NCBI GenBank assembly: GCA_963817535.1
Contig: CAWFOW010000011.1
Span: forward strand, 46,754-110,753
Direction: 5' to 3'
DNA from: an uncultured Alphaproteobacteria bacterium
GTDB taxonomy: Bacteria; Pseudomonadota; Alphaproteobacteria; MPNO01; DASWLB01
DNA: 64,000 nt
The notes under the pieces were generated by a model. It searched no databases and had not been told where the DNA came from. It saw only the letters and a program-made list of their open reading frames with translations. Of the stretch, positions 23,611 to 58,810 are shown in pieces. The position numbers were made by a program, and so were the translations under genes. How positions within the stretch are numbered: the first letter of the stretch is position 1; each line of letters begins with the position of its first letter.

Positions 23611-23653
23611 TCTGGCCGCCCGTCGCCCGCAGTTCCGCAAGAGGAAACCACCC

Positions 23654-32635: not shown

Positions 32636-33037
32636 ATGTCACGACCGGTCATTCCCGCCGCCAACTTCGACACCCAGCCATTCTGGGAGGGCTGCGCACG
32701 CGGCGAACTCCTGCTGCAACGCTGCGACGCATGCGGGTCCTATCGCCATCCGCCGAGCCCTGTCTGCCCGAACTGCCTGAGCGACAAGCATGCCTGGGTC
32801 CCGTCCAGCGGGCGCGGCAAGGTCTATACTTTCGTGGTGGTCCGCGAGACCCGGGCCCGCGGCTGGGACAAGATGGTGCCCTACGTCGTAGCCGTCATTT
32901 CGCTCGACGAGGGACCGCACATGCTGACCGACCTGATCAATGTCGCGCCGGAAGCGGTGACGATCGACATGCCCGTCGCGGTAACGTTCGAAGAGCTCGA
33001 CGGGACGACCCGGCTGCCGCTCTTTCGGCCGGCATGA
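32636..33037 (+). CDS. Zn-ribbon/OB-fold protein (DUF35), partner of SCP-x thiolase
   Basis: CDACGSYRHPPSPVCPNC zinc ribbon followed by an OB fold. Immediately precedes a thiolase. Confidence 0.7.
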   Translation: MSRPVIPAANFDTQPFWEGCARGELLLQRCDACGSYRHPPSPVCPNCLSDKHAWVPSSGRGKVYTFVVVRETRARGWDKMVPYVVAVISLDEGPHMLTDLINVAPEAVTIDMPVAVTFEELDGTTRLPLFRPA

Positions 33038-33053: not shown

Positions 33054-34208
33054 ATGACCGGGATCAGCGGACGGTATGCAATCGCAGGAGTTGGCGAATC
33101 CGACGTCGGACGCCATCTCGGGCGCTCCGGCATGGCGCTCCATCTCGAAGCGATCACTCGCGCGCTGGACGACGCCGGCCTGGAAAAATCCGACGTCGAC
33201 GGTCTGTTGGTCCGGCCGAGCCGGAGCGAGCCGCAGTTCAACTACTCGGCGGTGCTTGCCGGTCGGCTCGGAATCCAGCCCACCTATTTCTCCGACGTGG
33301 CGCTCGGCGGGGCGTCGTCCGCCTCCATGATCCTCGACGCCGTCGCGGCGCTCGAAGCGGGGCTGTGCACGACGGTGCTCTGCGTTAACGGCGACGCCCA
33401 GACCGCGCGCGGCGCGGTCCGCCGGGGCGGGCTGACCAACTGGATCGAGGATTTCGAGCGGCCGTTCGGCATGATCGGCGCACCCGAAAGCTATGGACTC
33501 GGCGCGCGCCGGCACATGCACGAGTACGGCACGACCAGCGAGCAGTTCGGGCAGATCGCCGTAGCTTGTCGCAAGCATGCCAGCCTCAACCCCGCCGCGA
33601 CATTCCGCACGCCAATGACGCTGGCCGATCACCAGGCGTCCCGCTACGTGGTCGAGCCGCTTCGCCTGCTCGATTGTTGCCCCGTGACGGACGGGGCGGG
33701 CGCGGTCATCGTGACTAGCGCCGAGCGGGCGCGCGACCTGGCGCAGCCTCCCGTATTCCTGCTCGGGCTGGGGCAGGGTTTTACCCACTCGGACCTGCCC
33801 TACGCGTCGTCGATGACCACCGTCTCGATGCGAAGCGCGTCGGAGCGTGCGTACGCCATGGCGGGGCTCGGCCCAACGGATATCGACCTGGCCCAGCTCT
33901 ACGATTGCTTCACCTCGGTCGTGCTGGTGACGCTCGAGGATTACGGGTTCTGCAAGAAGGGCGAGGGCGGCGCGTTCGTTGAGGACGGCCGGATCGAGCT
34001 CGGCGGCGAGCTGCCGGTCAATACCGGCGGCGGGCTGCTGTCGCACGCTCATGCGAGCGGCATGATGCTGGTCACCGAAGGGGCGATACAGATCCGCGGC
34101 GCGGCCGGGGATCGCCAGGTCGCCCACGCGGAAACGGCCATCGTCAGCGGACAGTGCGGCGTGACCGGGATCAACGTCTGCCTGATTTTCGCCAAGCATC
34201 TGAACTGA
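33054..34208 (+). CDS. Thiolase-like / SCP-x-type thiolase
   Basis: 384 aa. Thiolase N and C blocks (NTGGGLLSHAHASGMMLV). Confidence 0.8.
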   Translation: MTGISGRYAIAGVGESDVGRHLGRSGMALHLEAITRALDDAGLEKSDVDGLLVRPSRSEPQFNYSAVLAGRLGIQPTYFSDVALGGASSASMILDAVAALEAGLCTTVLCVNGDAQTARGAVRRGGLTNWIEDFERPFGMIGAPESYGLGARRHMHEYGTTSEQFGQIAVACRKHASLNPAATFRTPMTLADHQASRYVVEPLRLLDCCPVTDGAGAVIVTSAERARDLAQPPVFLLGLGQGFTHSDLPYASSMTTVSMRSASERAYAMAGLGPTDIDLAQLYDCFTSVVLVTLEDYGFCKKGEGGAFVEDGRIELGGELPVNTGGGLLSHAHASGMMLVTEGAIQIRGAAGDRQVAHAETAIVSGQCGVTGINVCLIFAKHLN

Positions 34209-34300: not shown

Positions 34301-34834
34301 ATGGCCGAACGTGAGCGCACCCGGGTGCGCGAGAAGGAGCCGCCCCGCGTCAGCTCCTACGAGCTCGCGATCAAGAACATGCGGGAATTCGCCGAGCGGA
34401 ACATGTTCGGCCGGATCGTGTGCAAGCTCGAGGACACCGAGCAGAACCTGACTCGGCAGGGCCGGCTTCGCACCTATCTCGGATTCACGGTCAAGGACAC
34501 GCCGCTCCAGGATTGGGTCGTCTTCACGCACGAGATCCGCACCGCGTCCGGCAAGCACCGGCACCAGGGCGGGCTGATCATCTATGTCATCGACGGGACG
34601 GGATACTCCATCGTCGACGGCGAGCGAGTCGATTGGGAGAAGGGCGATCTGGTTCTCCTGCCGCTTCGCGAAAAGGGCGTCGAGCACCAGCATTTCAATA
34701 CCAACCCGGAGAAGCCCGCCGTGTGGATGGCCTTCATCCGCCGTGCCCTCCAGGACTATGTCGCCTCGGAGATCACCCAGTCGGAGCCCTCGCCGGAGTA
34801 CAAGGCTGCCGAGGCGGCCGGTCGCGCGGAATGA
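34301..34834 (+). CDS. Small cupin-domain protein (paralog of 41905-42423)
   Basis: Conserved-barrel motif GGLIIYVIDGTGYSIVDGERVDWEKGDLVLLP...QHFN. Confidence 0.6.
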   Translation: MAERERTRVREKEPPRVSSYELAIKNMREFAERNMFGRIVCKLEDTEQNLTRQGRLRTYLGFTVKDTPLQDWVVFTHEIRTASGKHRHQGGLIIYVIDGTGYSIVDGERVDWEKGDLVLLPLREKGVEHQHFNTNPEKPAVWMAFIRRALQDYVASEITQSEPSPEYKAAEAAGRAE

Positions 34835-34838
34835 TGCG

Positions 34839-36060
34839 ATGAGCGCCGCCCGCCCGCTGCCCTTGTCCGGCATTCGCGTGCTCGATTTCGGGCATATCGT
34901 GGCGGGCCCCTTCTGCGTGCGGATGCTGGCGGATCTCGGCGCCGACGTCGTCAAGATCGAGACGGCATCGCGCCAGGGGCGCACCGGCGCCCGGCGCGGC
35001 AGCAGCGGACGGGGCGGCAATACCAGTGGTCGGACGCCGATTCTGTTTCACATCAACCGCAACCGCCGGTCCATCGACCTCGACCTGAAGACCGAGCGCG
35101 GTTGTGACGTCGCGCACCGGCTTGTCGATGTCGCGGACGTGATCGTCGAGAATTTCTCGAGCGGCGTCATGGATCGACTCGGGTTCGGCTACGACGCGCT
35201 GGCAACCACCAATCCGCGGCTCGTCTACGCCAGCATGTCGGCCTTCGGCCATTCGGGTCCGCACCGAGACTGGACCGGCATGAACGTCACGCTCCAGGCC
35301 TGCTCCGGCCTGATGCTCGCGACCGGACGGGCCGGCGATCCGCCGATCGGGATCTCCAACAGCTGGAACGACTATATCGGCGGGCTTCACGCCGCGGTCG
35401 CGATCATCGGCGCCCTGTCCGAGCGCGCGCAGACCGGCCGTGGCCGTCATCTCGACGTGTCGCAGTTCGAATGCAGCGTCGCGATGATCGGCAGCCTGCT
35501 GCTTTCCAGCATTATCGACCGGGCACCGCCTGAGCGTATCGGAAGCCGCTCGCGCGCCGTCGCGCCTCAGGGCTGCTATCGCTGCGCCGGCGAGGATCAA
35601 TGGTGCGCGATCAGCGTGCAGGACGACGAGCAGTGGCGCGCGCTCGTCGACGAGCTTGGCGAGGCCGCGACGTCTTTTCACGATCCGCGCTACGCGACCC
35701 TGGCCGGCCGGCTCGAGAATCACGACGCGATCGACGAAGTGATCGAATTCTTGGACCCAGGAGCTTGGTCCGACGGACGTCGAGCGCCGCCTCGGTGCGC
35801 GCGGCGTACCGGGGGCCGCGATGCGGCGCGGCGACGAGATAGCCGGTATGGAGTCCTGGCGCCAGGTTTTGCGCCCGGTCGCGGGTCGGGACGGGCCGTC
35901 TGAAAGGTCCGTCGGGTTGCCGTTCACCTTCGGCGGGTGCGCCCCGGTGGGCGCAACGCCCGCGCCCCGCATGGGCGAGCAGGGGCGCGAGGTCGTGCGC
36001 GACTGGCTGAAGCTCGATGATCGTGCGGTCGAGGAGCTGTTCCCGGAGGTTTCGGTCTGA
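34839..36060 (+). pseudogene. Family III CoA-transferase (CaiB/BaiF) gene with apparent +1 frameshift near 35755-35770
   Basis: N-terminus LSGIRVLDFGHIVAGPFCVRMLADLGADVVKIE. The C-terminal CaiB block (ELGPTDVERRLGARGVPGAAMRRGDEIAG...APRMGEQGREVVRDWLKLDDRAVEEL) is in the +1 frame (track ORF 35821-36060). Confidence 0.65.
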
Positions 36061-37179
36061 TGGCGCGCATCCTCGACCTGACGAGCGTGACGGGCGCGTA
36101 TGGCATGCGCCTCCTGGCCGAGATGGGTCACGAGGTGGTGCGTGTCGAGCGTCCCGAAGGCGACGAGGTGCGGCGCCTTTACCCGCATATCGGCGCCGTA
36201 CCGGACGCCGAGTTCGAGCGCGTTTCATCAGTTCCTCAACGCCGGCAAGCGCAGCTTTGCGGTGGACGTCGAAACCGAGGACGGGCGGCGCCGGCTTCTG
36301 GCCCTGGTCGCTACGGCGGACGCGATGGTGGCGAGCCTGCCGCTGCCACTCGACGAGGACGCATTGCACGCCGCCAACCCGGATATGGTCCTTGTTCGGC
36401 TCGACGACGGGCCGCCCGAGCTCTGCGGCTTCGCGGCATCGGGGCTGCTTGGCATTACAGGGGAGCCCGATGGCCGGCCGGTTCCGCTCGGCGGTCACGT
36501 TCCCAGCTCGGCCGTCGGCATCTATGTCGCGATGGCGACCGCCGCCGCGCTGTTCGCCCGTGACGGCGCCGGCGCGGGGCAGTTGGTGGATGTCTCGGCG
36601 GAGCAGTGCCTCGCCGCGCTTGCCGAGCAGGTCTGGGTTGAGTACGCGTCGTCGGGCGAGACGCTGGAGCGGCTCGGCTCGTGCGGCGGCGTCACGGCGC
36701 TCGCCGGCGCGCTTCCGTGCGCGGACGGCCACTGGATGGTGAGCGTACCGCCCGACCCGCAGGGCTGGGCGAACTTCGTCCAGCTCGTGCCGGACCCCGC
36801 GTTCAAGGACGATGCGTCGATGGCCGACGAGGCACTGCGGCGAGAGCGGAAGCACGAGATTCTCGATCGCGTCGCGGTTTGGTCGACGCCGCGCAAGAAG
36901 GCCGAGATCGTCGAGGAGGCGCAGCGCCGGCACATCCCCGCGGCGCCGGTGTCGAGCCCGGACGAGCTTGCCCACAATCCGCAGCTTCTCGCGCGCGGCT
37001 TCCTGCGCGAGGTCGATCATCCTGTCGCGGGCAGGATCAATTTTCCGGTGGGAGCGCTGGCAAGCCTCTGGGGACGATCGCCTCCCCTGGCGCCGCGCCT
37101 TGGCCAGGACAATGCCGCAATCCTGAATGAGCTCGACAATTCGGCCGATGATCCCGCGCAACCGTCGCGCGGCACGTGA
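36060..37179 (+). pseudogene. Second family III CoA-transferase (CaiB/BaiF) gene with apparent +1 frameshift near 36215-36235
   Basis: N-terminus MARILDLTSVTGAYGMRLLAEMGHEVVRVERPEGDEV is in frame 36060. The remainder, FHQFLNAGKRSFAVDV...HPVAGR..., is in frame 36100. Confidence 0.65.
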
Positions 37180-38339
37180 CCGACCAGGGGAGACCTCCGA
37201 TGACGACAGCCTGTCTTGCCCCTAACGGCATGAACGTCTATCGCGGCGATGCGGCCGTGACACGCCTTCTCGTCGGTACGGCGAACGGCGTGGTGGTGCT
37301 CGAACGCACGCCAGGAAGCGACTGGGCGGTGACCGGCATGACGCTCGACGGGCCGCATATCAGCTCGCTTCTGATTGAGCCCGTACGCGGCGGCATCTTC
37401 GCCGGGGTGCATCGCGGCGGCATCTATTACAGCCCCGACGGCGGCCGGAGCTGGGAGCCGCGCAGCGAAGGCATTACGATCGAGCACGTGTTCACCCTGG
37501 GCTGCACGGTCGAGAACGGCGAGCCGGTCATCCTTGCGGGCACCGAGCCGGTCAGCGCGTTCTGCAGCCGCGACGAGGGGCGGAGCTGGAAGGAGTTGCC
37601 GGGGCTACACGACATGAAGGGCAAGGAAAAGTGGATGTTCCCCATGCCGCCCCATGTCGCGCATGCGAAGACGATCGCGGTCGATCCGCGCGATCCGAGG
37701 ACCATCTATGTCGGCATCGAGCAGGGTGGGCTTTTCAAGACCGTCGATGGCGGACAGAACTGGCGCGAGCTCGAATCCTATTGGCGACCCGAGGACGAGG
37801 CGTACCGGGACGTTCACCAGATCGTGCTGCGTCCGAACCATCCCGACGAGGTCTACATGACCGGCGGCATGGGGCTCTATCGCAGCATGGACGGCGGCGA
37901 AAACTGGACGCACCTGACCGAGCGGCACGGCTTCCGCATTGGATATCCCGACAAGCTGATCTTCGCGCCCGACGACGACCGCACGATGTATATGTGCGGT
38001 TCGATGGGCAACCCGGGCACCTGGATCGAGCTGCATACCGCGAACGCGACCGTCCTGGTGAGCCACGACCGCGGCGAGACCTGGGCTTCTGCACATAAGG
38101 GTTTGCCCGACCCGATGACCGCCAATCTCGAAGCAATGTGCCGCTACGACTCGCCCGATGGGTTCGAGCTGTTCGCCGGCACGACCGAGGGCAAGGTCTA
38201 TTGCAGCGAAGGCGGCAGCAACAAATGGCGCCTGATCGCTGGTGAGTTGGCGCCGGTCTCGAAGGTCGCGCATTTCCGGCTGCTGCTACCGGGTGCCGTG
38301 TCCTCGCGCGGCAAGCGCCCGACCCAAGCGCCGGCATAA
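37176..38339 (+). CDS. BNR/Asp-box repeat beta-propeller protein, no signal peptide (paralog of 44627-45721)
   Basis: Repeated S-x-D-x-G-x-(T/S)-W motifs: SPDGGRSW, SRDEGRSW, TVDGGQNW, SMDGGENW, SHDRGETW. Confidence 0.6.
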   Translation: MTDQGRPPMTTACLAPNGMNVYRGDAAVTRLLVGTANGVVVLERTPGSDWAVTGMTLDGPHISSLLIEPVRGGIFAGVHRGGIYYSPDGGRSWEPRSEGITIEHVFTLGCTVENGEPVILAGTEPVSAFCSRDEGRSWKELPGLHDMKGKEKWMFPMPPHVAHAKTIAVDPRDPRTIYVGIEQGGLFKTVDGGQNWRELESYWRPEDEAYRDVHQIVLRPNHPDEVYMTGGMGLYRSMDGGENWTHLTERHGFRIGYPDKLIFAPDDDRTMYMCGSMGNPGTWIELHTANATVLVSHDRGETWASAHKGLPDPMTANLEAMCRYDSPDGFELFAGTTEGKVYCSEGGSNKWRLIAGELAPVSKVAHFRLLLPGAVSSRGKRPTQAPA

Positions 38340-38350
38340 GCCCCAGCGCC

Positions 38351-39400
38351 ATGGACAAGCCGCAGGCGGCCACGCTCGACGAGCTACAGGCGTGGATCGG
38401 CCGCGAACATCACTTCGCGGGCGTCGACGAGGTTTCGCGCAACGACATAAGGCGCAAGCTCGAAGCCTATTGCTTCGACTGCCCGCTGCACTACGACAAT
38501 GCGGTGGCGCGGGCGCACGGCTATCGCGGCCTGGTCGCTCCCGTATCGATGACACCGCTCTGGGCCATGCCGGCATACTGGAGTCCCGGCGACCCGGTCG
38601 CCTTCGTGCCCGGTGCGCGAGAAAATCCGGGCGGCATGAGGACCGACTTGCCGATCGTCTTCCCGCGCGGCGTGAACACGGGCACGGAGTGGGAGTTCTT
38701 CGAGCCGCTCTATCCCGGCGACGAACTCGAGGGAGTCTGGCGTCTGGCCGAGATCAAGCCGCGCCAGACGCGTCTCGGCAACGGGGCGTTTCTGATCGTC
38801 GACACCGACATCCACAAGCGGACGGGCGAACTGGTCGCGAAGAACCGCAATACCAACTATCGCTATACCGAGAATCCGGACGGCGCCAAGCGGGAAAAGC
38901 GCGACGCATCGAAGTCGGACGCGCCGCCGACCGAAATCGCCGCGCCCGTGGTGACGTCGGCAGAGCCGCCGGATTGGAGCCGGCAGCTCCGCTTCGGTGA
39001 CGTGGCGGTCGGCGACGAGGTGCCGTCTTACGCCCTGTGGCTGAGCTACCAGCGTATCGTGATGAGCGTCGCGGTTGACCGCATGTTCTCTGGCATCCAC
39101 CACAACCGCGAGCGCGCCCGCGAAGCGGGGTTCGGCGACATCATCTTCAATACCCGCAGCTACGAGATGCTGTTCGAGGCGATGCTGCGCCGCTGGATCG
39201 GCTTGGATGGGCGGATCCGGAGGCTCGGTCCGTTCCGTATGGGTGGCAGCAGCTACCCTGACGACGTGGTCACCGCGCGCGCCACGGTCGTCGATACCGA
39301 GTCCGGCGCTGCAGAGCGGCGGATCAAGGTCGAGCTCGTCGCGACAAACAATAGAGGCGAGGCGGCGCGCGGCGAGGCGGAGGTCGAGCTACCCGCATAG
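38351..39400 (+). CDS. Double hot-dog MaoC-like (R)-specific enoyl-CoA hydratase/dehydratase
   Basis: 349 aa with N- and C-terminal hotdog halves. C-terminal MaoC-like ...FNTRSYEMLFEAMLRRWIG... Confidence 0.65.
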   Translation: MDKPQAATLDELQAWIGREHHFAGVDEVSRNDIRRKLEAYCFDCPLHYDNAVARAHGYRGLVAPVSMTPLWAMPAYWSPGDPVAFVPGARENPGGMRTDLPIVFPRGVNTGTEWEFFEPLYPGDELEGVWRLAEIKPRQTRLGNGAFLIVDTDIHKRTGELVAKNRNTNYRYTENPDGAKREKRDASKSDAPPTEIAAPVVTSAEPPDWSRQLRFGDVAVGDEVPSYALWLSYQRIVMSVAVDRMFSGIHHNRERAREAGFGDIIFNTRSYEMLFEAMLRRWIGLDGRIRRLGPFRMGGSSYPDDVVTARATVVDTESGAAERRIKVELVATNNRGEAARGEAEVELPA

Positions 39401-39455
39401 GCGCCGAGACGTCTTTGCGGGAGCGGCGCCCGCGCGGTTTCGTGAGGAGGAGCGA

Positions 39456-40937
39456 ATGGGTATTCGAAGCGGCACGGAGGTCCTTGCCGGGCTGCGCGAC
39501 GGTCGCGCGGTCTTTATCGATGGCGAGCGCGTGGTCGATGTCACGCGCGACCCGCGCTTCCGAGGCGCCGCGCGCACCGTTGCCGCGCTCTATGATATGC
39601 AGCACCAGCCGGAGCAGCGCGACACGCTGACTTATTCGTCGCCCAGTACCGGCGAACGGGTCGGGCTCTCCTTCATCGAACCCAAGTCACAGGACGACCT
39701 CCGCCGCCGCCGCGAAATGGTCAAATGCTGGCACGATTCGACGCTCGGCATGTTCGGACGTGCGCCCGATTTCCTCAACGTCCTCATCAGCACGTTCGGT
39801 TCGTGCGCCGAGGCATTCGGACCGGACTATGGCCCGAACATGCGTGCCTATTACGAGCGCGCCCGCGAGGGCGACCTGGTCGCGACCCACACGCTCAGCA
39901 ATCCTCAGGTCGATCGCACGCGCAACGTCGCGGCGCAGGAGAAGGATCTCGCGGCGCATGCGGTCGGCGACAACGACAAGGGCATCGTCATTCGCGGCGC
40001 CCGCATGCTGGCCACGCTCGCGGCCTATTCCGACGAGCTGCTGGTCATGCCGCCGCCATCGGGCCGCATGCCGGAGACCGAGGAGGCGAAGCCCTACGCT
40101 ATCGCGTTCGCCATTCCGGTCGCGACGCCGGGACTTCGGCTGATCTGCCGGCCGAGCGTCATGCATCTGGGCGCAGGCTCGGCACTCGATTACCCCCTGT
40201 CGGCGCGCTACGACGAGACCGACTGCATGGTGATATTCGACGACGTGCTTGTCCCGTGGGATCGGGTGTTCGTTTATCGTGACGTTCCGACCTATAACGC
40301 ACTCTACCGCCGCAGCGGCGCGTCGGCCCAGATGGCGCACCAATTCGTCACCAAGGACCTGGCGAAGGCCGAATTCATGATGGCGCTCGCCTTCGCACTG
40401 GTGCGCACGACCAAAGTCGACGAGTTTCTGCATATTCAGGGTGCACTTGCCGAGCTCATCAACCACGCCGAGGTGATCCGCTCCTGCCTGATTGCGTCGG
40501 AGCTCGGCGCGCGCCCGTCGCGCTACGGGATCATGATGCCGGCGGCGGGACCGCTCGACGCGATGCGACTGATGTTTCCGCAGATGTTCCGGCGCGCCTG
40601 CGAGATCATGCAGATCGTCGGTGCCGGGGGGCTGGTGATGGTGCCGTCCTTCGCGGAAGTCGAAGGTGCGCTGGCGTCCGACGTCGAAACCTACTATCAG
40701 GCGGCCAATGCCGACTCGCAAAGCCGCATAAAGCTGTTTCGCCTCGCCTTCGACTCGGCGCTGTCGAGCTTTTCCGGCCGGCAGCAGCTCTACGAACGCT
40801 ATTTTGCGGGCGATCCCGTTCGCGCCGCGGGCGGCCTCTACAACGCCTACGACAAGGAGCCGCACGTCGCGCGCATCTGGGACGTGCTCGACCGCTTCGA
40901 GCGGGAGGCACGGGACGACAGCGACGATTCTGTGTGA
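39456..40937 (+). CDS. 4-hydroxyphenylacetate 3-monooxygenase oxygenase-component family (HpaB-like) flavin monooxygenase
   Basis: 493 aa. HpaB-family blocks (GDLVATHTLSNPQVDR, KGIVIRGARMLATL). Strong RBS gaggagg. Confidence 0.75.
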   Translation: MGIRSGTEVLAGLRDGRAVFIDGERVVDVTRDPRFRGAARTVAALYDMQHQPEQRDTLTYSSPSTGERVGLSFIEPKSQDDLRRRREMVKCWHDSTLGMFGRAPDFLNVLISTFGSCAEAFGPDYGPNMRAYYERAREGDLVATHTLSNPQVDRTRNVAAQEKDLAAHAVGDNDKGIVIRGARMLATLAAYSDELLVMPPPSGRMPETEEAKPYAIAFAIPVATPGLRLICRPSVMHLGAGSALDYPLSARYDETDCMVIFDDVLVPWDRVFVYRDVPTYNALYRRSGASAQMAHQFVTKDLAKAEFMMALAFALVRTTKVDEFLHIQGALAELINHAEVIRSCLIASELGARPSRYGIMMPAAGPLDAMRLMFPQMFRRACEIMQIVGAGGLVMVPSFAEVEGALASDVETYYQAANADSQSRIKLFRLAFDSALSSFSGRQQLYERYFAGDPVRAAGGLYNAYDKEPHVARIWDVLDRFEREARDDSDDSV

Positions 40938-40970
40938 CGAGTGGAACCGGGCGGGAGCTGGATTGCGACC

Positions 40971-41681
40971 TTACGATTCGCCCGAGAAGAATCCTTCGGC
41001 TGCGTCAAGGATCGCCTGGCCGGAATTGTGCACGTGCTGGCGCATCGCGCGGTCGGCGCCCTTCGCGTCACCTTTCAGGATGGCCTTGACCACGCGGCCA
41101 TGCTCGAGGCGCGAGCGGCGCACGGCGGAAGGAGCGCGCTGGATCCGGTGAAACTGCAGCTCGAAGACCGAGAGGTTGGCCTGTTCCAGATAGCCCGGCA
41201 GCTCGTTGTGGCGCGCTGCCTCGACCACGAGAGCGTGGAACATTTCGTTGTATTCGGCGTAGCTCCAGTTCGGGATGCCGCGGTCCCAACGTCGCTCGAT
41301 GTCGATGAGTCGCTTGCGCTGCGCGGCATCGATCCATTCGGCGGCGCGTGCCGCCGCGAATCCCTCCAGCAAGGCGCGGATCTGGTTGGTCTCCGCGAAT
41401 TCGCGGCGCGAGATCTTGCGGATGCTCGCGCCGCGATAGAGCTCGATCTGGACGATGCCGTCGGCTTCCAGCCGACGCAGCGCCTCGCGCACGGAGCCCC
41501 GGCTGACCTGGAACTCACGCATGATGTCGGGCTCGACGAGTCGCTGGCCAAGCACGTAGCGGCCGTGTCGGATGCCGCGCTTGATCGAGTTGATGACGTG
41601 GTCGACGGCGGATACGGCGCCGACGGGGCCCGCCGGTATCGGTTCTTCGGTCTTCACGTTCGCCGTGGCACCCGTCGTCAT
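40971..41681 (-). CDS. GntR family (FCD-type) transcriptional regulator
   Basis: HTH ...RLVEPDIMREFQVSRGSVREALRRLEADGIV... plus a C-terminal FCD domain. Confidence 0.85.
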   Translation of the reverse strand: MTTGATANVKTEEPIPAGPVGAVSAVDHVINSIKRGIRHGRYVLGQRLVEPDIMREFQVSRGSVREALRRLEADGIVQIELYRGASIRKISRREFAETNQIRALLEGFAAARAAEWIDAAQRKRLIDIERRWDRGIPNWSYAEYNEMFHALVVEAARHNELPGYLEQANLSVFELQFHRIQRAPSAVRRSRLEHGRVVKAILKGDAKGADRAMRQHVHNSGQAILDAAEGFFSGES

Positions 41682-41904
41682 TGCCGTTCCTGCCCGCGCT
41701 GCTGCGCGCCTGTTAACGCCACCGGACCGGTGCCGGCGACCTTAGTGATGCCTGATGTCGGCTCACCTGACAAGCGGGTCGACAGGCGTTCAACGATTTC
41801 GTACAACGATATTAGGTCTGGCATCCCCGGCGCGAGGGGGCCTGCGCCCGGCTTCGAGTGGGTTCGACCGGATGCGCGTACCGTGATCTCGGGAGGCGGA
41901 AGAT

Positions 41905-42423
41905 ATGTCTGAGGAACGGACGAAGAGGCTGGCGGCGACCAATTTCTGGGACGAGTTGTTCAAGCTCCGCGACCAGCAGCGCGAACGGCGCTCCTCGGGC
42001 CTGCAGGTGATCAAGGGCTCGCAGCTGCCGCAAGAGATCAACCGCCAGGGTTTGATGCGCTGGTACATGCACCCGTCCATCACGGACACGATCCTCTCTA
42101 CCCACATCTTCTTCGAGCAGGAGGTACCACCGGGCAGCCGCTCGGGCCGGCTCAAGTTCCAGGGCGAACAGGTGATCTACATCCTCGAGGGCAAGGGCTA
42201 CACGCTGGTCGACGGCGTCAAGCATCGTTGGAAAGCCGGTGACGTGCTCAACCTTCCGATACGCAAGGAAGGCATCATCATCCAGCATGTGAACGAGGAT
42301 CCGGATGCGCCGGCGAAGTTCGTTGCAGCGGAGCCGAACCTGTACGCATGCACCGGCGTAGATCGCGGCTCCGGTTTCGAGCAGCTTGAGGATGCGCCCG
42401 AATACCGTCGCTCGGACCGCTAG
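41905..42423 (+). CDS. Small cupin-domain protein (paralog of 34301-34834)
   Basis: GEQVIYILEGKGYTLVDGVKHRWKAGDVLNLP...QHVN. Confidence 0.6.
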   Translation: MSEERTKRLAATNFWDELFKLRDQQRERRSSGLQVIKGSQLPQEINRQGLMRWYMHPSITDTILSTHIFFEQEVPPGSRSGRLKFQGEQVIYILEGKGYTLVDGVKHRWKAGDVLNLPIRKEGIIIQHVNEDPDAPAKFVAAEPNLYACTGVDRGSGFEQLEDAPEYRRSDR

Positions 42424-42561
42424 GCAGGCCGATGGCGGGCCTGTATCCCATCGAAATGGCACCTTAAAGCAGAGCCCAATGCGCTGCCGACGAGGCTTTG
42501 GATGAGTCACACGAACGCCGTTCACGATGGCGACCCGAGAAAGACCAAAGGAGGAAACAAG

Positions 42562-43563
42562 ATGACACGACTTTTCCTGCTCGCCGTGCTTGCCGTAGTT
42601 GCGGCCGGTCCGGCATCGGCCGCCGAGCCGATGACGCTCAAGATGAACTGGACGGTGATGCCGGCCAACATGTCGGCGTTGATGCCGTTGGTGCCCAAGG
42701 AGATCTACCGCCATTGGGGCAAGAGCTACGTGCTTGAGCCCGAGCGCATGCGCGGCTCGGGACCGGCGCTGACGGCGCTCGCGGCCGGGACGATCCAGCT
42801 ATCGACGTCCAGCCCGCAGTCGTTGGTGAACGCCGTCCAGCAGGCCAAGATCGACATCGTCGCGCTCGGCCAGGAGCTGACGACCGACCTGCCGGGCTAT
42901 GCCAGCGCCGGGACGTTCTGGGTGCGCAAGGACTCGGGGATCAACAGGATCGAGGACCTCAAGGGCAAGGTCGTTGCCGTCAACGCCTATGGCAGCCAGA
43001 TCTACGGCGTGATGCGCGCCAAGCTCAAGCAGCACGGACTCGAGGCCAGGAAGGACTACCAGGTCGTCGAGCTTCGGCTGCCAACACATCTTTCGGCGCT
43101 CCAGTCGAAGCGCGTGGATATGGCTTTCCTTCTGCTGCCGTTCAACTACAACGCCGAGCGGGATCCTTCGGTCAAGCTGCTGTTCAAGATGGGCGACGTC
43201 GCCGGTCCGCAGGAAACCGTGCTGTTCACCGCCAAACGCGATTGGCTGAGCAAGAATCATGCGGTGGTGGTCGACTTCCTTGAGGACATGTTGCGCTTCC
43301 GGCACTGGCTCTACGACCCCAAGACACGCATGCAGGCGATCGAGACCATGTCCAAGTTCACGAAGATTCCCGTAAAGTCATATGCGAGCTGGGCCTTCAC
43401 GAACCGAGACAATTACCGCGACCCGAACGGGCTGATCGACGTCGCTCGGCTTCAGAAGAACGTCGACTTCCTGAAGGCCTCGGAGGTCGTGCCCGAGACG
43501 ATCGATGCGAAAGCCCATGTGGATCTGTCGTATGTCAAGGAGGCCGCCGCACGGCTCAAGTAG
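42562..43563 (+). CDS. NMT1/SsuA-like periplasmic substrate-binding protein (orphan)
   Basis: Signal peptide MTRLFLLAVLAVVAAGPASA. RBS aaaggagga. Confidence 0.75.
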   Translation: MTRLFLLAVLAVVAAGPASAAEPMTLKMNWTVMPANMSALMPLVPKEIYRHWGKSYVLEPERMRGSGPALTALAAGTIQLSTSSPQSLVNAVQQAKIDIVALGQELTTDLPGYASAGTFWVRKDSGINRIEDLKGKVVAVNAYGSQIYGVMRAKLKQHGLEARKDYQVVELRLPTHLSALQSKRVDMAFLLLPFNYNAERDPSVKLLFKMGDVAGPQETVLFTAKRDWLSKNHAVVVDFLEDMLRFRHWLYDPKTRMQAIETMSKFTKIPVKSYASWAFTNRDNYRDPNGLIDVARLQKNVDFLKASEVVPETIDAKAHVDLSYVKEAAARLK

Positions 43564-43689
43564 CCAGGCCAAGTCAATCCCCGGCGTCGCGCCGGTGCGT
43601 CGGATCGGACTGTGTTAATGGCCGTTCGGTGGCAGTAGGGTGAGCCTCTGCTGCTACCACAGCCTGAACGCTGCAAGAGGGGAACCGTC

Positions 43690-44622
43690 GTGCCGATCGT
43701 CTTGGGCCTTGCGTCTTCGCACACGCCGTCGATGTTCGTCGCGGCCGATAAATGGCCGATGGTTCACCAGGGTCTTGTGCGCGACGTTCCCCAGCCGGCA
43801 CAAATCGCGCGCGAGACGCCCGACGTCATCGCGGAGCAAGTAGAGCGCGTGAGGCAGGGTTTCGCGGCGCTTCGGGCCGAGCTCGAGGCCGCAAAGCCCG
43901 ACGCGCTTATCATCCTGGGCGACGACCAGAACGAGCTGTTCTCGAACGCGTTGATCCCGAGCTTCGCCATCTTCATCGGCGAGGCGGCCGAAGGGACCTA
44001 CAGCATCACCTTCGTCGGCGAAAAGCCACAGGACAACTGGATGAATCTACCCTGCCATCCCGACCTGGCGCGGGTGGCGCTCGAAGGCCTCATCGAGCGC
44101 GGTTTCGACCTTGCCTATTCCGAAAAGCTGGTCCCGCTCGCCCGACCGGAAATCGGGATCGGTCATGCGTTCACCCGGATCAGCCGCGCGATGCGTTTGG
44201 CGGACTCGGGCATCCCGATCATCCCGATCTTCACCAATGCCTATCACCCGCCGCTGCCGAGCGCCGCGCGATGCTATGCGCTGGGCCAGGCGCTGCGCGA
44301 TATCTTCGCGAAACGCCCGGAACGCATTGCCATCTATGGTTCCGGTGGGCTGTCGCACGATCCGCGCGGGCCGCGCGCCGGGTGGGTGGACGAGCCGCTG
44401 GACCGGTGGGTGCTGGACCGGATCGCGCGCGGAGAAGGCGCGCAGCTTCGCAACCTCTTCACGACGGACTCCGCGACGTTGCGTGGTGGGACCGGCGAAA
44501 TCCGTAACTGGGTGGCGGTGGCAGGTGCCTATGACGGGCGCAAGGGGACGGTCGTGGACTACATCCCGTCCCACCATGCCGTGACCGGCCTCGGCTTCGC
44601 CTATTGGAACGAAGCCGCCTGA
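43690..44622 (+). CDS. Class III extradiol ring-cleavage dioxygenase (LigB family)
   Basis: 310 aa. LigB-type motifs (LASSHTPSMF..., GSGGLSHDP). Confidence 0.8.
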   Translation: MPIVLGLASSHTPSMFVAADKWPMVHQGLVRDVPQPAQIARETPDVIAEQVERVRQGFAALRAELEAAKPDALIILGDDQNELFSNALIPSFAIFIGEAAEGTYSITFVGEKPQDNWMNLPCHPDLARVALEGLIERGFDLAYSEKLVPLARPEIGIGHAFTRISRAMRLADSGIPIIPIFTNAYHPPLPSAARCYALGQALRDIFAKRPERIAIYGSGGLSHDPRGPRAGWVDEPLDRWVLDRIARGEGAQLRNLFTTDSATLRGGTGEIRNWVAVAGAYDGRKGTVVDYIPSHHAVTGLGFAYWNEAA

Positions 44623-44626
44623 ACGA

Positions 44627-45721
44627 TCACGCAGGCTGCAGCGGGCGATAATGGCGCCCCTTGGTGACCGGGGCGAGGCTGCCGGCGATCATCGTCCAGT
44701 TCTCCGCCCCGTCCTCGCTCGCCATGACGATGCCGTCCGTCGTTCCGGCGAAAAGAACGAACCCGCCGGGATATGTGGCAAGACTCATCGCCTCGATGTT
44801 GGCGCGCCGGCTTTCGGGAAAGCCCCGGCTCGCATCGGTCCAGGTCAGGCCCCGGTCGAGGCTTCGCGCGACCGTCCCGTCGGCGAAGCGGGACGTTTGC
44901 CAAGTGCCAGGGTCCTTCCCGGCACCGGCCATGAACATCGTATCGTGATCGAGCGGCGAGACGAAAAAGTGGTCCGGATACCCGATGCGAAAGTCGTTGT
45001 CGATGATCAGTGTCCAGCTTTCGCCCGCGTCGTAGCTGCGATAGAGCCCCATGCCGGTCGTCATGTAGAGTTCGGCCGAGCTCGACGGGTGGACGACGAT
45101 CAGGTGAATGTCACGATACGTCCAATCGCTCGGCTTCGAATAGTCGTCCAGAACGCGCCAGCTCGCGCCGCCGTCGGTCGTCTTCAAAAGGTCGCCCTGT
45201 TCGACTCCCGCATAGATCACGTTCGGATCGTGCGGATCGACAGTCATCGTCTTCACGTGCGCCTCGTGCGGCGGGCTCGGAAACGACCACTTCTCGCGCC
45301 CCCTGGTCTCCTTTACGCCCGGTAGCTCGATCCATGCCCGGCCGTAATCGTTGCTGCGGAACATCGAGGCCGGTTCGGTGCCGGCATAGAGCACGACGGC
45401 ATCGCCGTGATGTGCGTAGCCGAGCGAAAACACGTGCCCGATCGTAATGCCGTTCGAGCGGGGCTCCCACGTCTCGCCGCCATCCGCGCTGAAGAACAGG
45501 CCACCGGAATGCATGCCGGCGAAGATGCCGCCACGGCGGGGCTCGATCATGATCGAGCTGCAATGGTGCCCCTCCAGCCTCAGGCCTTGCTCGGCCCAGG
45601 GGGCATTCGGCGTTTCGCGCTCGAGGACGCTGATGCCGCGCAGCGTCGCGACGAGAAGGCGCGTCGGCGGAGAATCGCCGGTCATCTGATTCTGGCCATT
45701 CGGCGACAGGCACGCAATCAT
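44627..45721 (-). CDS. BNR/Asp-box repeat beta-propeller protein (paralog of 37176-38339)
   Basis: SADGGETW, SNDYGRAW, TTDGGASW, SYDAGESW, SLDRGLTW. About 55% identical to its paralog by eye. Confidence 0.6.
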   Translation of the reverse strand: MIACLSPNGQNQMTGDSPPTRLLVATLRGISVLERETPNAPWAEQGLRLEGHHCSSIMIEPRRGGIFAGMHSGGLFFSADGGETWEPRSNGITIGHVFSLGYAHHGDAVVLYAGTEPASMFRSNDYGRAWIELPGVKETRGREKWSFPSPPHEAHVKTMTVDPHDPNVIYAGVEQGDLLKTTDGGASWRVLDDYSKPSDWTYRDIHLIVVHPSSSAELYMTTGMGLYRSYDAGESWTLIIDNDFRIGYPDHFFVSPLDHDTMFMAGAGKDPGTWQTSRFADGTVARSLDRGLTWTDASRGFPESRRANIEAMSLATYPGGFVLFAGTTDGIVMASEDGAENWTMIAGSLAPVTKGRHYRPLQPA

Positions 45722-45757
45722 GTCAACCTCGCCTCTGCCCTAGGGGCTGTCCAATAA

Positions 45758-45774
45758 GTTACATACTGCACAAT
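45758..45774. promoter_or_regulatory. Operator-like motif GTTACATACTGCACAAT upstream of the BNR gene
   Basis: Shares the GTTA.A.ACTGCA.AA core with the palindrome at 46857-46879. Confidence 0.4.
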
Positions 45775-45795
45775 ATATATCGTCGTATCGCAGGC

Positions 45796-46773
45796 CTACA
45801 GCCGCAGCAGTCGTTCGGCATTGCCATGGGCGATCTTCTCGCGGTCCGCGGCGCTGAGGTCGATCTTGTTCCAGAACTCCATCGCCGTGCTGTTGGCCTC
45901 GTAGGGCCAGTCGATCGCCCAGAGCATGCGGTCCGCACCGATGGCGAGCAGGGTGCAGACGAAAGCCGGCTCGAACCAGTTGCCGCTCGCCGCCACATAA
46001 AGATTGTCGTGGATGTATTCGAGCGGCGTTTTCGCAAGCCCGCGCTGCCTTGCCACGAGATGCGTGTGTTCGTGCAGGCGATGCATCGCGAAGGGCAGCC
46101 CTTCGCCCAGATGTCCCATGATGATCTGAAGCTTCGGATAGGCGTCGAACACGCCCGCGAACAGCATGCGCAGGAAATGGATGCTAGTATCGACCGCGAA
46201 GCCCCAGCCCGGCCGCGCGAGCACGTCCTCGTAACCCTGGAAATAGGCCTTCATCGCATCGGGATGCGGTAGTGCCGGGTGCAGGAAGATCGGAACGTCG
46301 AGCGTCTCCGCCCGCTCGAATATGGGCCAGTACGCCTTGTCGTCGAGGAAGCTTCCGTTGGTATGGCCGTGGACCATTGCGCCAACGAAGCCGTGATCCT
46401 TGACGCAGCGTTCGAGCTCATCGGCCGAGGCTTCCGGCACCACGGTCGGCAGGGCGGCAAACCCGGCGAACCGCTTGGGGTGCTCGGCTTTTGCGACGGC
46501 AAGCCGTTCGTTAACCGCCTTCGCCATGGCGTTCGCCTCGCCCGGCGTGAAGCGCGACACCATCGGCATGTTGAACGACAGCACTTGGACGTCGATGCCC
46601 GCGGCGTCCATGTGCTTCAGACGGGACGGGCCGAGCTCGTCGAGCTCGAAGCCGATATCGTGCCCGATCGCGGCGCTGCGGGATGTCATGTAGAAGCTGC
46701 GGGCCTCGTTGACCTGCGCCTTCTCCCGGAAGGAGGGGAGGGAGAAATGCTCCTCGATGGCGATGATTCGCAT
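45796..46773 (-). CDS. Amidohydrolase_2 family metal-dependent hydrolase/decarboxylase (ACMSD/LigW/LigJ-like)
   Basis: MRIIAIEEHF start block, HPALPHPDAMKAY, IDWPYE... motifs of the amidohydrolase-2 family. Confidence 0.75.
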   Translation of the reverse strand: MRIIAIEEHFSLPSFREKAQVNEARSFYMTSRSAAIGHDIGFELDELGPSRLKHMDAAGIDVQVLSFNMPMVSRFTPGEANAMAKAVNERLAVAKAEHPKRFAGFAALPTVVPEASADELERCVKDHGFVGAMVHGHTNGSFLDDKAYWPIFERAETLDVPIFLHPALPHPDAMKAYFQGYEDVLARPGWGFAVDTSIHFLRMLFAGVFDAYPKLQIIMGHLGEGLPFAMHRLHEHTHLVARQRGLAKTPLEYIHDNLYVAASGNWFEPAFVCTLLAIGADRMLWAIDWPYEANSTAMEFWNKIDLSAADREKIAHGNAERLLRL

Positions 46774-46856
46774 GCATTTATCCTGTGCGCCGGCCATGGT
46801 CTATGGCCTTTCGATAGCCCGACGGTAGCATCGCGGCCGCTGGACGGGAAGGTCAA

Positions 46857-46879: not shown

Positions 46880-48184
46880 ATGAAGGCGTCCGACCTCATC
46901 GACCTCGAAGCCGGAACCCTCAATCGGGAAATCTTCTCGAGCGAGGAGATATTCCAGCGCGAGCTCGAGCGCGTGCTCGCCCCGGCCTGGAGTTATGTCG
47001 GCCATACCAGCCAGATCCCGGACAAGGGCGACTTTTTCCTGTCGCGCTGCGGGACGGAGGCCGTCATCGTCGCGCGTGGCCGGGACGGCACGGTCCGCGT
47101 GATGCTGAACAGCTGCCGTCATCGCGGCATGCCGGTCTGCCGCTACGATGCTGGCAACACGTCAAGCTTCGTCTGCAGCTATCACGGGTGGTCCTACGCG
47201 ATTGACGGCGCGCTCGACGGCGTGCCGCGCAAGGAACGCTACCAGGGCCGGCTCGAGTGCGAGAAATGGGGATTGGTCCAGGCCCGCGTGAGCGTGTTCC
47301 ACGGCTCCATCTGGGCGACGTTCGACGAGGCCCTGCCGACGTTCGAGGACTATCTCGGCCCGGACATGCAGTTCTATCTGCGATCCCTGCTGCAGGGGCC
47401 GGATGGCGATGACGACGGCTACGAGGTGATCGGTGGGATCGTCAAATGGCAGATCCCGTGCAACTGGAAGTTCGGCGCGGAGAACTTCGCCGGTGACCAC
47501 TACCACGGCTACAGCCATATCTCGGTCGAGCGCCTGTCGGTGGGGCTGAGCGGCAAGAAATCGCGGCACAATTTCGCCGCCGTAAAGACGCCACGCCAGG
47601 CGATGAGCGTCGCGGCGCCCGATCGCGGCCACACGATCCGGGCCAGCGTCTACCAGGCACTTGCCGGATACGACCCGCAAATGGGCGCGCCCGACGAGGT
47701 GAACGAGTATTACCAGAAGTGCCACGAGGAACGGCAGAGACGCCTGGGAGACAAGTCGCGCCTGCTGATCCACGGCGGCGTGATCTTTCCCAACACGCAT
47801 TTCAACAGCGCCGGGCGAACGACCATCGGCGTCTGGCTGCCGCTTTCCGCCTCCCGGACGGAGGTGTGGCGCTGGCTGTTCGTGCCGCGGAACGCGCCCG
47901 CGACCGTGAAGGACACGCTGCGCGAATATTATCTGCGCTATGCGGGGCCCGCAGGTCTGGTCGAGCAGGACGACATGGAAAACTGGTCGGCAGCGCAGCG
48001 CGGCACCCAGAGCCTCGTCGCGCGCCGATACCCGTTCAATTACCAGCTTGCGATGGGGCTGACGCGACGGGCGACGCCGGACGAATGGCTTGGCGACGAG
48101 GTGACGATCACCGAGGGCGTTGCCGAGCATAACCAGCGTGCGTTCTACGGCCACTGGGCGAATCTCATGGCAGGCGAGCCTTGA
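46880..48184 (+). CDS. Rieske aromatic ring-hydroxylating dioxygenase, alpha subunit
   Basis: Rieske CRHRGMPVCRYDAGNTSSFVCSYHGW. Catalytic-domain His/Asp motifs. Confidence 0.85.
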   Translation: MKASDLIDLEAGTLNREIFSSEEIFQRELERVLAPAWSYVGHTSQIPDKGDFFLSRCGTEAVIVARGRDGTVRVMLNSCRHRGMPVCRYDAGNTSSFVCSYHGWSYAIDGALDGVPRKERYQGRLECEKWGLVQARVSVFHGSIWATFDEALPTFEDYLGPDMQFYLRSLLQGPDGDDDGYEVIGGIVKWQIPCNWKFGAENFAGDHYHGYSHISVERLSVGLSGKKSRHNFAAVKTPRQAMSVAAPDRGHTIRASVYQALAGYDPQMGAPDEVNEYYQKCHEERQRRLGDKSRLLIHGGVIFPNTHFNSAGRTTIGVWLPLSASRTEVWRWLFVPRNAPATVKDTLREYYLRYAGPAGLVEQDDMENWSAAQRGTQSLVARRYPFNYQLAMGLTRRATPDEWLGDEVTITEGVAEHNQRAFYGHWANLMAGEP

Positions 48185-58794: not shown

Positions 58795-58810
58795 GGCGGA
58801 ACTCCCGGAC

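Follow-up and report, generated by a model that had tools for sequence, protein, structure and literature searches.

Asp-box propellers of known structure

The sole specific relative of solved structure for the two proteins described here is PDB 3b7f, a 2007 structural-genomics entry for Reut_B4987 (YP_299179.1) of Cupriavidus pinatubonensis (Ralstonia eutropha) JMP134. This protein is annotated as a 'putative glycosyl hydrolase with BNR repeats', and its function is listed as 'not known' in a survey of Asp-box proteins (PMC2716378). The two proteins, BNR1 and BNR2, are just 25-28% identical to 3b7f. They are encoded in a 64,000-nucleotide stretch of DNA (hereafter the window; contig CAWFOW010000011.1, positions 46,754 to 110,753) from an uncultured Alphaproteobacteria bacterium. 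We find that BNR1 and BNR2 are cytoplasmic members of an uncharacterized family of single-domain, seven-bladed Asp-box propellers. We tentatively propose that they are catabolic enzymes of aromatic-acid degradation, which would carry out acid-base and possibly metal-assisted chemistry on an oxygenated pathway intermediate.

Other described Asp-box propellers resemble BNR1 and BNR2 in part. Ycf48/HCF136 (PF14870; PDB 2xbg and 5ojr) is likewise a single seven-bladed Asp-box propeller of similar size (Foldseek E ~1e-9, 14-19% identity), and is the source of the label 'photosystem II stability/assembly factor-like' given to relatives by JGI. However, Ycf48 is a lumenal lipoprotein of phototrophs that binds D1 and is not an enzyme, whereas BNR1 and BNR2 have neither a signal peptide nor accompanying photosynthesis genes. 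Dispase autolysis-inducing protein (DAIP, PDB 5fzp), the second-best Foldseek match (16-17% identity, TM 0.54-0.60), is a single seven-bladed propeller of ~340 amino acids that is secreted by Streptomyces and binds metalloproteases. The GH74 xyloglucanases (PDB 6p2k, 3a0f, and 2cn2, among others) are secreted proteins of ~750 amino acids with two tandem propellers and catalytic Asp residues in the cleft between them, unlike BNR1 and BNR2, which have one propeller, are cytoplasmic, and lie in no polysaccharide context. The GH33 sialidases (BNR_2) share the Asp-box repeats, but have six blades, an Arg triad with a FRIP motif, and a Tyr/Glu nucleophile pair, none of which was found in BNR1 or BNR2.

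Known cytoplasmic propeller enzymes perform mostly carboxylate or ester C-O chemistry through His, Glu, and Tyr, often with a divalent metal; examples include carboxymuconate cyclase (1jof), the 6-phosphogluconolactonases, virginiamycin B lyase (2z2n), and PL22 oligogalacturonate lyase. These are seven-bladed, and their C-O chemistry takes place beside a carboxylate at His, Glu, and Tyr residues of the top face, whether a metal is present or not. We take these lyases, lactonases, and cycloisomerases as a mechanistic working analogy.

BNR1 and BNR2 are paralogous cytoplasmic proteins

The two genes and their Asp-boxes are located as follows.

37200-38339, + strand: BNR1, a 379-amino acid cytoplasmic seven-bladed Asp-box beta-propeller (from translation, Pfam, BLAST of the paralogue, and an AlphaFold model)
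37431-37454, 37566-37589, 37740-37763, 37884-37907, and 38061-38084 (span 37431-38084), + strand: the five canonical Asp-boxes of BNR1, by pattern match
44627-45721, - strand: BNR2, a 364-amino acid paralogue of BNR1 with the same fold
45467-45490, 45332-45355, 45158-45181, 45014-45037, and 44840-44863 (span 44840-45490), - strand: the five canonical Asp-boxes of BNR2, by pattern match

BNR1 and BNR2 are 55% identical end to end (362 residues, E = 1e-141) and are therefore paralogues, in agreement with the original prediction for this locus; no third copy occurs within the window. The coordinates in that prediction hold for BNR2 (44627-45721, - strand), while BNR1 had been started at 37176. 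The start of BNR1 is probably ATG 37200, and GTG 37176 an in-frame upstream codon, because a ribosome-binding site (GGGGAG) lies 8 nt upstream of the ATG, the public gene call is 379 amino acids long, and the orthologues begin MTTACLAPNG.

Neither protein has a signal peptide or lipobox, and both are cytoplasmic. The reading frame upstream of either start stays open for only 0-8 codons, the N-terminus is conserved as MxxCLSPNG in closer relatives, and this segment is modeled by AlphaFold2 as a β-strand of the propeller. A distant clade has a variant form of the N-terminus (e.g., MAIGLSHGG), and no signal peptide is evident at the N-termini of relatives from either the closer or the distant clade. 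The absence of a signal peptide had been correctly anticipated. The accompanying statement that BNR propellers are normally secreted was too strong, as thousands of proteins belong to this cytoplasmic family alone, and some known GH33 proteins are cytosolic as well (PMC2716378).

Each protein has exactly five matches to the Asp-box pattern [STA]x[DN]xGxx[WF], as had been noted, at amino acids 78, 123, 181, 229, and 288 in BNR1 and 78, 123, 181, 229, and 287 in BNR2; shuffled sequences have ~0.04. A degenerate sixth Asp-box occurs in the last blade of each protein (SEDGAENW in BNR2). AlphaFold2 models were built on alignments of 39 and 36 homologues and had high confidence (BNR1, pLDDT 90.0 and pTM 0.90; BNR2, pLDDT 91.9 and pTM 0.91). 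Both consist of seven four-stranded blades, as do the best structural matches, and in blades 2-6 the Asp-boxes come after the third strand and before the fourth. By these features both proteins belong to the Asp-box (BNR) β-propeller superfamily.

Family assignment

The Pfam matches of both proteins are to generic Asp-box families only: Sortilin-Vps10 (5.9e-19 for BNR1 and 1.7e-11 for BNR2), BNR (5.8e-12 and 4.1e-08), and, in part, PSII_BNR (2.4e-09 and 6.8e-08). No NCBIfam family matched either protein at threshold. PDB 3b7f ranked first in Foldseek for both models (E = 1.1e-21 for BNR1) and was matched over its full length in a profile search against the PDB (E = 3.5e-39). The correspondence to 3b7f thus extends over the full length in both sequence and structure, but the putative functional residues of BNR1 and BNR2 differ from those of 3b7f.

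The original prediction had framed the choice as one between sialidase and lactonase or cycloisomerase propellers, to be settled by profile and structural comparison of AlphaFold models. That comparison placed BNR1 and BNR2 with neither group, the top match being 3b7f. The PF10282 family, which holds the lactonases and carboxymuconate cycloisomerases, gave no Pfam match at E ≤ 1 and no PDB profile match at E ≤ 0.01, and structural similarity to its propellers was no greater than that to unrelated seven-bladed propellers. Descent from the 3-carboxymuconate cycloisomerase/6-phosphogluconolactonase family, with Asp-boxes acquired secondarily, is therefore extremely improbable. The proposal of a lactonase- or cycloisomerase-type propeller accordingly has no homology behind it, although similar chemistry is not thereby contradicted.

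BNR1 and BNR2 might instead be true glycoside hydrolases, sialidase- or GH74-like, that remove sugars from imported aromatics before ring degradation. Relatives carry the public names 'glycosyl hydrolase' and 'exo-alpha-sialidase', the F510_1955 glycosylhydrolase model (NCBIfam NF045728) matches the two proteins with 80.2 and 94.0 bits, GH74 domains are the next-best structural matches, and the genes often follow those of transporter binding proteins. All of the cutoffs are missed, however: the F510_1955 matches consist of four partial stretches and fall short of the 175 bits required, and those to BNR_2 (PF13088) reach 21.3 and 14.4 bits against a cutoff of 31.4. The models have seven blades rather than the six of GH33. 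No Arg is ≥85% conserved in the family alignment described below, and therefore an Arg triad appears to be lacking; a 'FRIG' segment at residues 244-247 is not conserved among relatives. A single propeller in 364 or 379 amino acids also contrasts with GH74 chains of ~700-790 amino acids, in which two propellers form the cleft, and sugar-catabolic genes are missing from the conserved neighborhoods. We regard a glycosidase as very improbable. The original prediction had named assignment to a glycoside hydrolase family with an intact Arg triad, together with a cryptic signal peptide, as the outcome that would count against it; we found no such family at cutoff, no conserved Arg triad, and no signal peptide.

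Membership in Ycf48/HCF136 was rejected as well. Matches to NCBIfam PRK13684 reach 36.4 and 31.7 bits against a cutoff of 326, and the best PF14870 stretches cover 100 (BNR1) and 60 (BNR2) of 303 model positions. These proteins are exported lipoproteins of phototrophs, whereas BNR1 and BNR2 have no signal peptide and the window contains no photosystem genes.

Conserved residues and a putative top-face pocket

Residues conserved outside the Asp-boxes were sought in an alignment of 49 sequences, comprising the two window proteins, seven from scanned loci (see below), and 40 of the best 150 cluster representatives, these being one per 50%-identity cluster of a 1.8-billion-protein library. In BNR2 numbering, five residues are 100% conserved (W145, F147, E174, D204, and H206), three are 98% conserved (H155, Y248, and W274), and six others range from 94% (K157) through 92% (P249 and D250) and 90% (H357) to 86% (E310 and K354). 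H152 is conserved in most members, below the 85% cut-off of the alignment. The family signatures are WxFPxPPHxxH-x-K, E-[QV]-G, D-x-H, Y-P-D, and S-K-x-x-H. The principal elements are encoded at the following positions.

37632-37664, + strand: BNR1 motif W145-x-F-P-x-P-P-H152-x-x-H155, followed by K157, in a long loop before the inner strand of blade 4 (invariant in alignment A2)
37719-37721, + strand: BNR1 E174, which lies within E-Q-G of blade 4 loop 2-3 and is a candidate for catalysis or metal binding (100% conserved)
37809-37817, + strand: BNR1 D204-x-H206, at the N-terminal end of the blade 5 inner strand (100% conserved and kept even in 3b7f)
45257-45289, - strand: BNR2 motif W145-S-F-P-S-P-P-H-E-A-H155
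45200-45202, - strand: BNR2 E174, by alignment
45104-45112, - strand: BNR2 D204-I-H206, by alignment

All of the catalytic and ligand-binding residues of known Asp-box proteins lie on the propeller's top face, which is composed of the N-terminal ends of the inner strands along with loop 2-3, while the Asp-boxes support the bottom face (PMC2716378). In the models of BNR1 and BNR2, H53, H96, H155/K157, D204/H206, Y248/D250, and E310 are each at the N-terminal end of an inner strand, in blades 2-7. H71, E174, and W274 are in loops 2-3, and W145 to H152 occupy the long connector between blades 3 and 4. As these strand and loop positions match the top face, we infer that the conserved residues line a single pocket on this face, in which His, Asp, Glu, Lys, Tyr, and Trp are abundant.

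The signature residues persist at low sequence identity. The homologue from Roseomonas gilardii (35% identity) retains nearly all of them, and a core of H155, K/R157, E174, and D-x-H is kept in homologues from Mycobacterium (29.5% identity) and haloarchaea (30.2%). In contrast, the 3b7f/Ralstonia clade and the Streptomyces relatives lack WxFPxPPHxxH, E174, Y-P-D, and S-K-x-x-H; only D-x-H and H96 are shared with 3b7f. Because the signature residues are absent from the 3b7f/Ralstonia clade, the window proteins, judged by sequence, are a distinct sister subfamily beside 3b7f. Just 12 positions are specific to the BNR1 or the BNR2 clade, and these are uninformative.

Family size and distribution

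Members of the BNR1/BNR2 family number in the thousands in metagenomes, whereas cultured organisms contribute almost none. A word-indexed search in which 8,000 candidates were scored gave at least 2,356 relatives of BNR2 at E ≤ 1e-3. Those listed are ~364 amino acids long, apart from a few shorter ones of 268-338 amino acids, and most are unnamed or carry the JGI label mentioned above. For BNR1, 1,089 relatives were found at E ≤ 1e-20. When 1.84 billion cluster representatives were searched exhaustively with a profile, 4,535 matched at E ≤ 1e-30. Among the best 150 of these, ~40 are full-length single-propeller proteins of 330-430 amino acids; the others are giant multi-propeller proteins, unrelated to the family, whose scores come from repeated Asp-boxes. 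No domain fusions occur among the single full-length family matches (~330-430 amino acids) in the homologue lists.

A scan of 185,579 species genomes with family-specific peptide patterns yielded 68 loci, all from metagenome-assembled genomes (MAGs). They span Stellaceae and other Alphaproteobacteria, Eremiobacterota (Lustribacter), Binatia, 'Deltaproteobacteria', Rokubacteria, Chloroflexota, and Verrucomicrobia; the closest orthologues of BNR1 and BNR2 are from uncultured Alphaproteobacteria and Stellaceae MAGs, and the window thus probably comes from a Stellaceae-like alphaproteobacterium. The cultured carriers found have the gene on plasmids only: Roseomonas gilardii ATCC 49956 (MVG78_RS19815, with the motif present) and Mycobacterium sp. 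(K3G64_RS00925). Ralstonia, Streptomyces, and haloarchaea carry 3b7f-like genes that are more distant. The BNR protein of the fitness study by Price et al. is unrelated, being of the periplasmic COG4447/DUF1329-RND type.

Several MAG loci have two propeller paralogues within 10 kb (L036, L007, L031, L046, L054, L069, and L082). L036 has two separate BNR-MaoC pairs, and both L054 and L069 have the order BNR, isochorismatase, BNR, GST-zeta. As the window itself also illustrates, family members evidently undergo duplication inside catabolic islands.

Gene neighborhood in the window

The genes surrounding BNR1 and BNR2 in the window are as follows.

30183-31310, - strand: LigXa/VanA-like Rieske monooxygenase, divergent from the BNR1 operon; such genes recur near distant family members
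31458-32606, + strand: Zn-alcohol dehydrogenase (Zn-ADH), part of an upstream side-chain-cleavage module
32636-33037, + strand: DUF35/ChsH2 OB-fold protein, upstream module
33054-34208, + strand: SCP-x-type thiolase, upstream module
34301-34834, + strand: cupin, first gene of the BNR1 operon and also grouped with the upstream side-chain-cleavage module
about 34860-35903, + strand: CoAT1, a family III coenzyme A (CoA)-transferase, apparently truncated
36100-37179, + strand: CoAT2, a family III CoA-transferase resembling CaiB/BaiF and benzylsuccinate CoA-transferase
38351-39400, + strand: MaoC/FAS1_DH-type double hot-dog enoyl-CoA hydratase, distantly ChsH1/ChsH2-like, 11 nt downstream of BNR1
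39456-40937, + strand: HpaB-type flavin monooxygenase, 4-hydroxyphenylacetate 3-hydroxylase-like, which ends the BNR1 operon
43690-44622, + strand: LigB-type extradiol dioxygenase, convergent with BNR2 and 4 nt away
45796-46797, - strand: Amidohydro_2 non-oxidative hydroxybenzoate decarboxylase, co-directional with BNR2 and 74 nt upstream
46880-48717, + strand: Rieske ring-hydroxylating dioxygenase of the biphenyl/phenylpropionate type, alpha (46880-48184) and beta (48181-48717) subunits

The aromatic and CoA catabolic context reported in the original prediction is borne out: a family III CoA-transferase precedes BNR1 and MaoC follows it, and LigB lies 4 nt from BNR2. The BNR1 operon runs on the + strand with short spacers in the order cupin, CoAT1, CoAT2, BNR1, MaoC, and HpaB-type hydroxylase, and with the upstream Zn-ADH, DUF35, and thiolase genes it is a CoA-dependent side-chain-shortening module. 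At the BNR2 locus, the Amidohydro_2 protein is closest to gamma-resorcylate, 2,3-dihydroxybenzoate, and 5-carboxyvanillate decarboxylases (3.3e-65). The Rieske alpha/beta genes (1e-74 to 5e-77 to the biphenyl/phenylpropionate type) are divergent from the Amidohydro_2-BNR2 pair and are followed by MarR and DctP genes. The Pfam-scanned open reading frames (ORFs) of the window include neither a dihydrodiol dehydrogenase of the SDR family nor a ferredoxin or reductase to serve the Rieske and HpaB-type oxygenases. The public gene calls of a near-identical contig include one SDR gene (adh_short) past the PGI gene, ~8-9 kb beyond BNR2 and outside the cluster; the window equivalent was unscanned.

Synteny across genomes

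Gene neighborhoods were compared by tblastn of the window neighbors against the 68 loci and by independent BLAST clustering of neighboring ORFs, with labels checked against Pfam. Within 8 kb on either side of the propeller, genes for NMT1-like binding proteins were found at 38 of the 68 loci, Amidohydro_2 at 22, alpha/beta-hydrolases at 22, Rieske alpha at 19, LigB, LigXa-like Rieske, and Peripla_BP_6 at 14 each, and HyuA and MaoC at eight each; these are raw counts, all from MAGs, with no random-locus background. NMT1-like genes, the commonest neighbor, are often directly upstream of the propeller.

The neighborhoods differ among clades. In the BNR2 clade (21 loci, ≥66% identity), Rieske alpha/beta genes are within 80-3700 nt of the propeller at 18 of the 21 loci, and two of the three loci without them are on short contigs. 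The same clade has LigB at 12 loci, Amidohydro_2 at 10, and an alpha/beta-hydrolase at 12. Its Eremiobacterota loci have no LigB, and the propeller starts 78-126 nt from Rieske alpha. In the BNR1 clade (seven genes, about 70% identity), a ChsH-like MaoC gene is 42-85 nt downstream in all seven. On another metagenome contig, a BNR1-type gene overlaps MaoC by 4 nt and is preceded by DUF35, with no thiolase. The order CoAT-CoAT-MaoC-BNR-cupin occurs in a clade of 42-45% identity, and thiolase-BNR-CoAT in an Eremiobacterota clade of 62% identity. A Binatia/delta clade of ~40% identity typically has NMT1-BNR-HyuA-HyuB (e.g., L039, L042, L045, and L057), and also lies near LigXa-type Rieske, alpha/beta-hydrolase, TctC, UbiD, and Amidohydro_2 genes. 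Further arrangements are LigXa-Rieske, VOC dioxygenase, aldo-keto reductase, BNR; DctP, BNR, NMT1, BNR, DctP, DctQM; and UbiD, BNR, luciferase-like monooxygenase, NMT1-like binding protein, UbiD, in which the propeller is flanked on both sides by UbiD. GST-zeta is found in additional contexts.

On the Roseomonas plasmid the order is flavin reductase, ACAD-like protein, alpha/beta-hydrolase, BNR, and MFS. On the Mycobacterium plasmid it is SDR, Zn-ADH, BNR, Rieske alpha, Rieske beta, SCP2, and an intradiol dioxygenase, with the BNR start overlapping the Zn-ADH stop. Alphaproteobacteria, Eremiobacterota, Actinomycetota, and Binatia, at a minimum, thus share the tie to oxygenase-centered aromatic catabolism. 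For the distant plasmid homologues of Haloterrigena, Streptomyces, and Ralstonia the context is unclear or unrelated, and the Novosphingobium record is unannotated. On the Ralstonia solanacearum megaplasmid (L075, 6690-8152), a propeller of the 3b7f-like clade directly follows a small MoaD/ThiS-family gene and is close to hppD, RidA, and an MBL-fold hydrolase, a context unlike that of the window subfamily.

The close packing of propeller genes with their neighbors is compatible with complex formation, and the propellers could be non-catalytic binders, scaffolds, or assembly factors in the manner of Ycf48 or DAIP. Such a protein could keep pathway enzymes together or stabilize them, for example the Rieske oxygenase or a complex of DUF35 and MaoC, or it could sequester an intermediate that is reactive or hydrophobic. 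The propeller gene overlaps or abuts those for MaoC, Zn-ADH, and Rieske proteins, the one DUF35-BNR-MaoC operon lacks a thiolase, and DAIP and Ycf48, which after 3b7f are the nearest characterized single-propeller structures, both bind proteins. However, invariant His, Asp, Glu, Lys, and Tyr residues at <30-50% identity over several phyla would be unusual for a protein-protein interface, the partners vary greatly among loci, and the Ycf48 threshold is missed by a wide margin (36 bits versus 326). A purely binding role seems unlikely.

The scarcity of dehydrogenase genes raises another possibility, namely that the propellers are cofactor-independent or metal/O2-dependent dehydrogenating enzymes that re-aromatize or desaturate their substrates in place of locally missing dehydrogenases. 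BNR2 would replace a cis-dihydrodiol dehydrogenase, and BNR1 an acyl-CoA dehydrogenase acting before MaoC. The products of biphenyl/phenylpropionate-type Rieske enzymes normally require an SDR, yet an SDR gene is within 8 kb at just one of the 19 Rieske alpha/beta loci (L006-L048); the BNR1 operon has no acyl-CoA dehydrogenase; and the His-rich conserved site, as read from sequence, could bind Fe or Cu. Against this, there is no nucleotide- or flavin-binding motif, no known Asp-box propeller offers a precedent, and the Mycobacterium locus already has an SDR and a Zn-ADH beside the propeller. An ibuprofen-type route, in which dioxygenation of a CoA ester is followed by thiolase/DUF35 cleavage, also needs no dehydrogenase. 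Ferredoxin and reductase genes are missing too, so the missing genes are probably encoded elsewhere; for this reason the lack of an SDR, while suggestive, was rejected as proof of a dehydrogenase role. A dehydrogenating enzyme of this kind is improbable.

Proposed role of the propellers

We return to the tentative reading of BNR1 and BNR2 as catabolic enzymes acting on oxygenated intermediates. The top-face pocket would be an acid-base centre, with His, Asp, and Glu possibly binding a metal. Acid-base chemistry is favored because of the analogy to the cytoplasmic propeller enzymes already known, and the centre may perform lyase, hydrolase, or isomerase-type reactions on an oxygenated, non-aromatic intermediate. 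BNR2-type propellers would act with the Rieske alpha/beta, hydroxybenzoate decarboxylase, LigB, and alpha/beta-hydrolase route, for which a cis-dihydrodiol or ring-fission product is a candidate substrate. BNR1-type propellers would act with the CoA-transferase, MaoC hydratase, and DUF35/thiolase side-chain route, and an enoyl- or 3-hydroxyacyl-CoA is a candidate substrate. As one invariant residue set recurs across these different pathway modules, the family would be an enzyme superfamily with a shared mechanism and varied substrates.

A number of points weigh against an enzymatic role. The closest characterized single-propeller relatives, Ycf48 and DAIP, are non-catalytic. The clustering of the conserved residues comes from strand positions and not from coordinates, and no cofactor or metal site is demonstrable in BNR1 or BNR2. 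The neighborhood counts have the limits given above, and no single neighbor gene is universal across the propeller loci, so that the reaction is not derivable from a step that seems to be missing. Because the clusters lack ferredoxin and reductase genes as well, it is weak evidence in itself that a locus lacks a given gene. We found no published functional study of this family, either on 3b7f/Reut_B4987 or on Asp-box/BNR proteins together with Rieske enzymes or aromatic catabolism.

A bolder version of the enzymatic proposal, which we consider distinctly unlikely, is that the propellers are a new β-propeller enzyme class. In these, a His/Asp/Glu metal centre on an Asp-box scaffold would process the primary products of oxygenases or hydratases, replacing canonical NAD- or FAD-dependent dehydrogenases in uncultured soil lineages. 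Cofactor-independent re-aromatization or elimination of cis-dihydrodiols beside Rieske enzymes, and a lyase or desaturase step beside MaoC, would be examples.

Other features of the window

The window (GC content ~66%) was compared with ENA ERZ25039495 contig_11352 (L001), the near-identical contig mentioned above, which is 1.48 Mb long and comes from a soil metagenome. Positions 34624-55720 match it with 99.48% identity over 21 kb (101 mismatches and seven gap openings), and the differences are concentrated at 35000-36000 and 37500-38000. The latter correspond to 15 amino acid changes in BNR1, and both versions look functional from their sequences; the exact BNR1 sequence is also recorded on another contig, of 758 kb. 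This pattern suggests strain-level heterogeneity or a recombined patch.

CoAT1 covers profile positions 1-286 of 366 and ends at 35903, with a 197-nt gap to CoAT2, whereas its orthologues are 398-416 amino acids long. The CoAT1/CoAT2 region differs from contig_11352 by indels at 35428/35431, 35675-35676, and 36213. The CoAT1 defect is probably a frameshift, a pseudogene, or a long-read assembly error.

The 74-nt spacer from the Amidohydro_2 stop to the BNR2 start (45722-45795, containing atatatattgtgcagtatgtaacttattgga) is AT-rich in surroundings of 65% GC, and could be an internal promoter or a regulator-binding site. Orphan periplasmic binding-protein genes are dense in the window, with six NMT1-like genes (5166-6185, 16712-18783, 22636-24625, and 42502-43563) and two TRAP DctP genes (18811-19815 and 49269-50282). 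A HyuB-HyuA hydantoinase/oxoprolinase pair lies at 57040-60868 on the - strand. A 517-amino acid ORF (12236-13789, - strand) has coding-type codon bias and no Pfam family at E ≤ 1e-5, and overlaps the start of an AMP-binding enzyme gene (13762-15342).

Implications for aromatic catabolism

The fold and the orphan relative 3b7f were already known. What appears to be undescribed in the literature that we found is the subfamily itself, the candidate active site that it conserves, and the systematic way in which it is placed in the aromatic-catabolic operons of uncultured phyla from soil. Automatic annotation as 'sialidase', 'glycosyl hydrolase', or 'PSII assembly factor-like' mislabels thousands of these proteins. 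Uncultured lineages, among them Stellaceae-like Alphaproteobacteria, Eremiobacterota, Binatia, Rokubacteria, and Chloroflexota, dominate the turnover of aromatic and lignin-derived carbon in soil, and their pathways are currently inferred from the enzymes of model strains. A propeller inside the operons of these lineages points to an unassigned step or an accessory function in Rieske- and CoA-dependent aromatic degradation. A defined reaction would add a catalytic use of the Asp-box propeller outside glycoside chemistry, and would also give a function to the superfamily of 3b7f.

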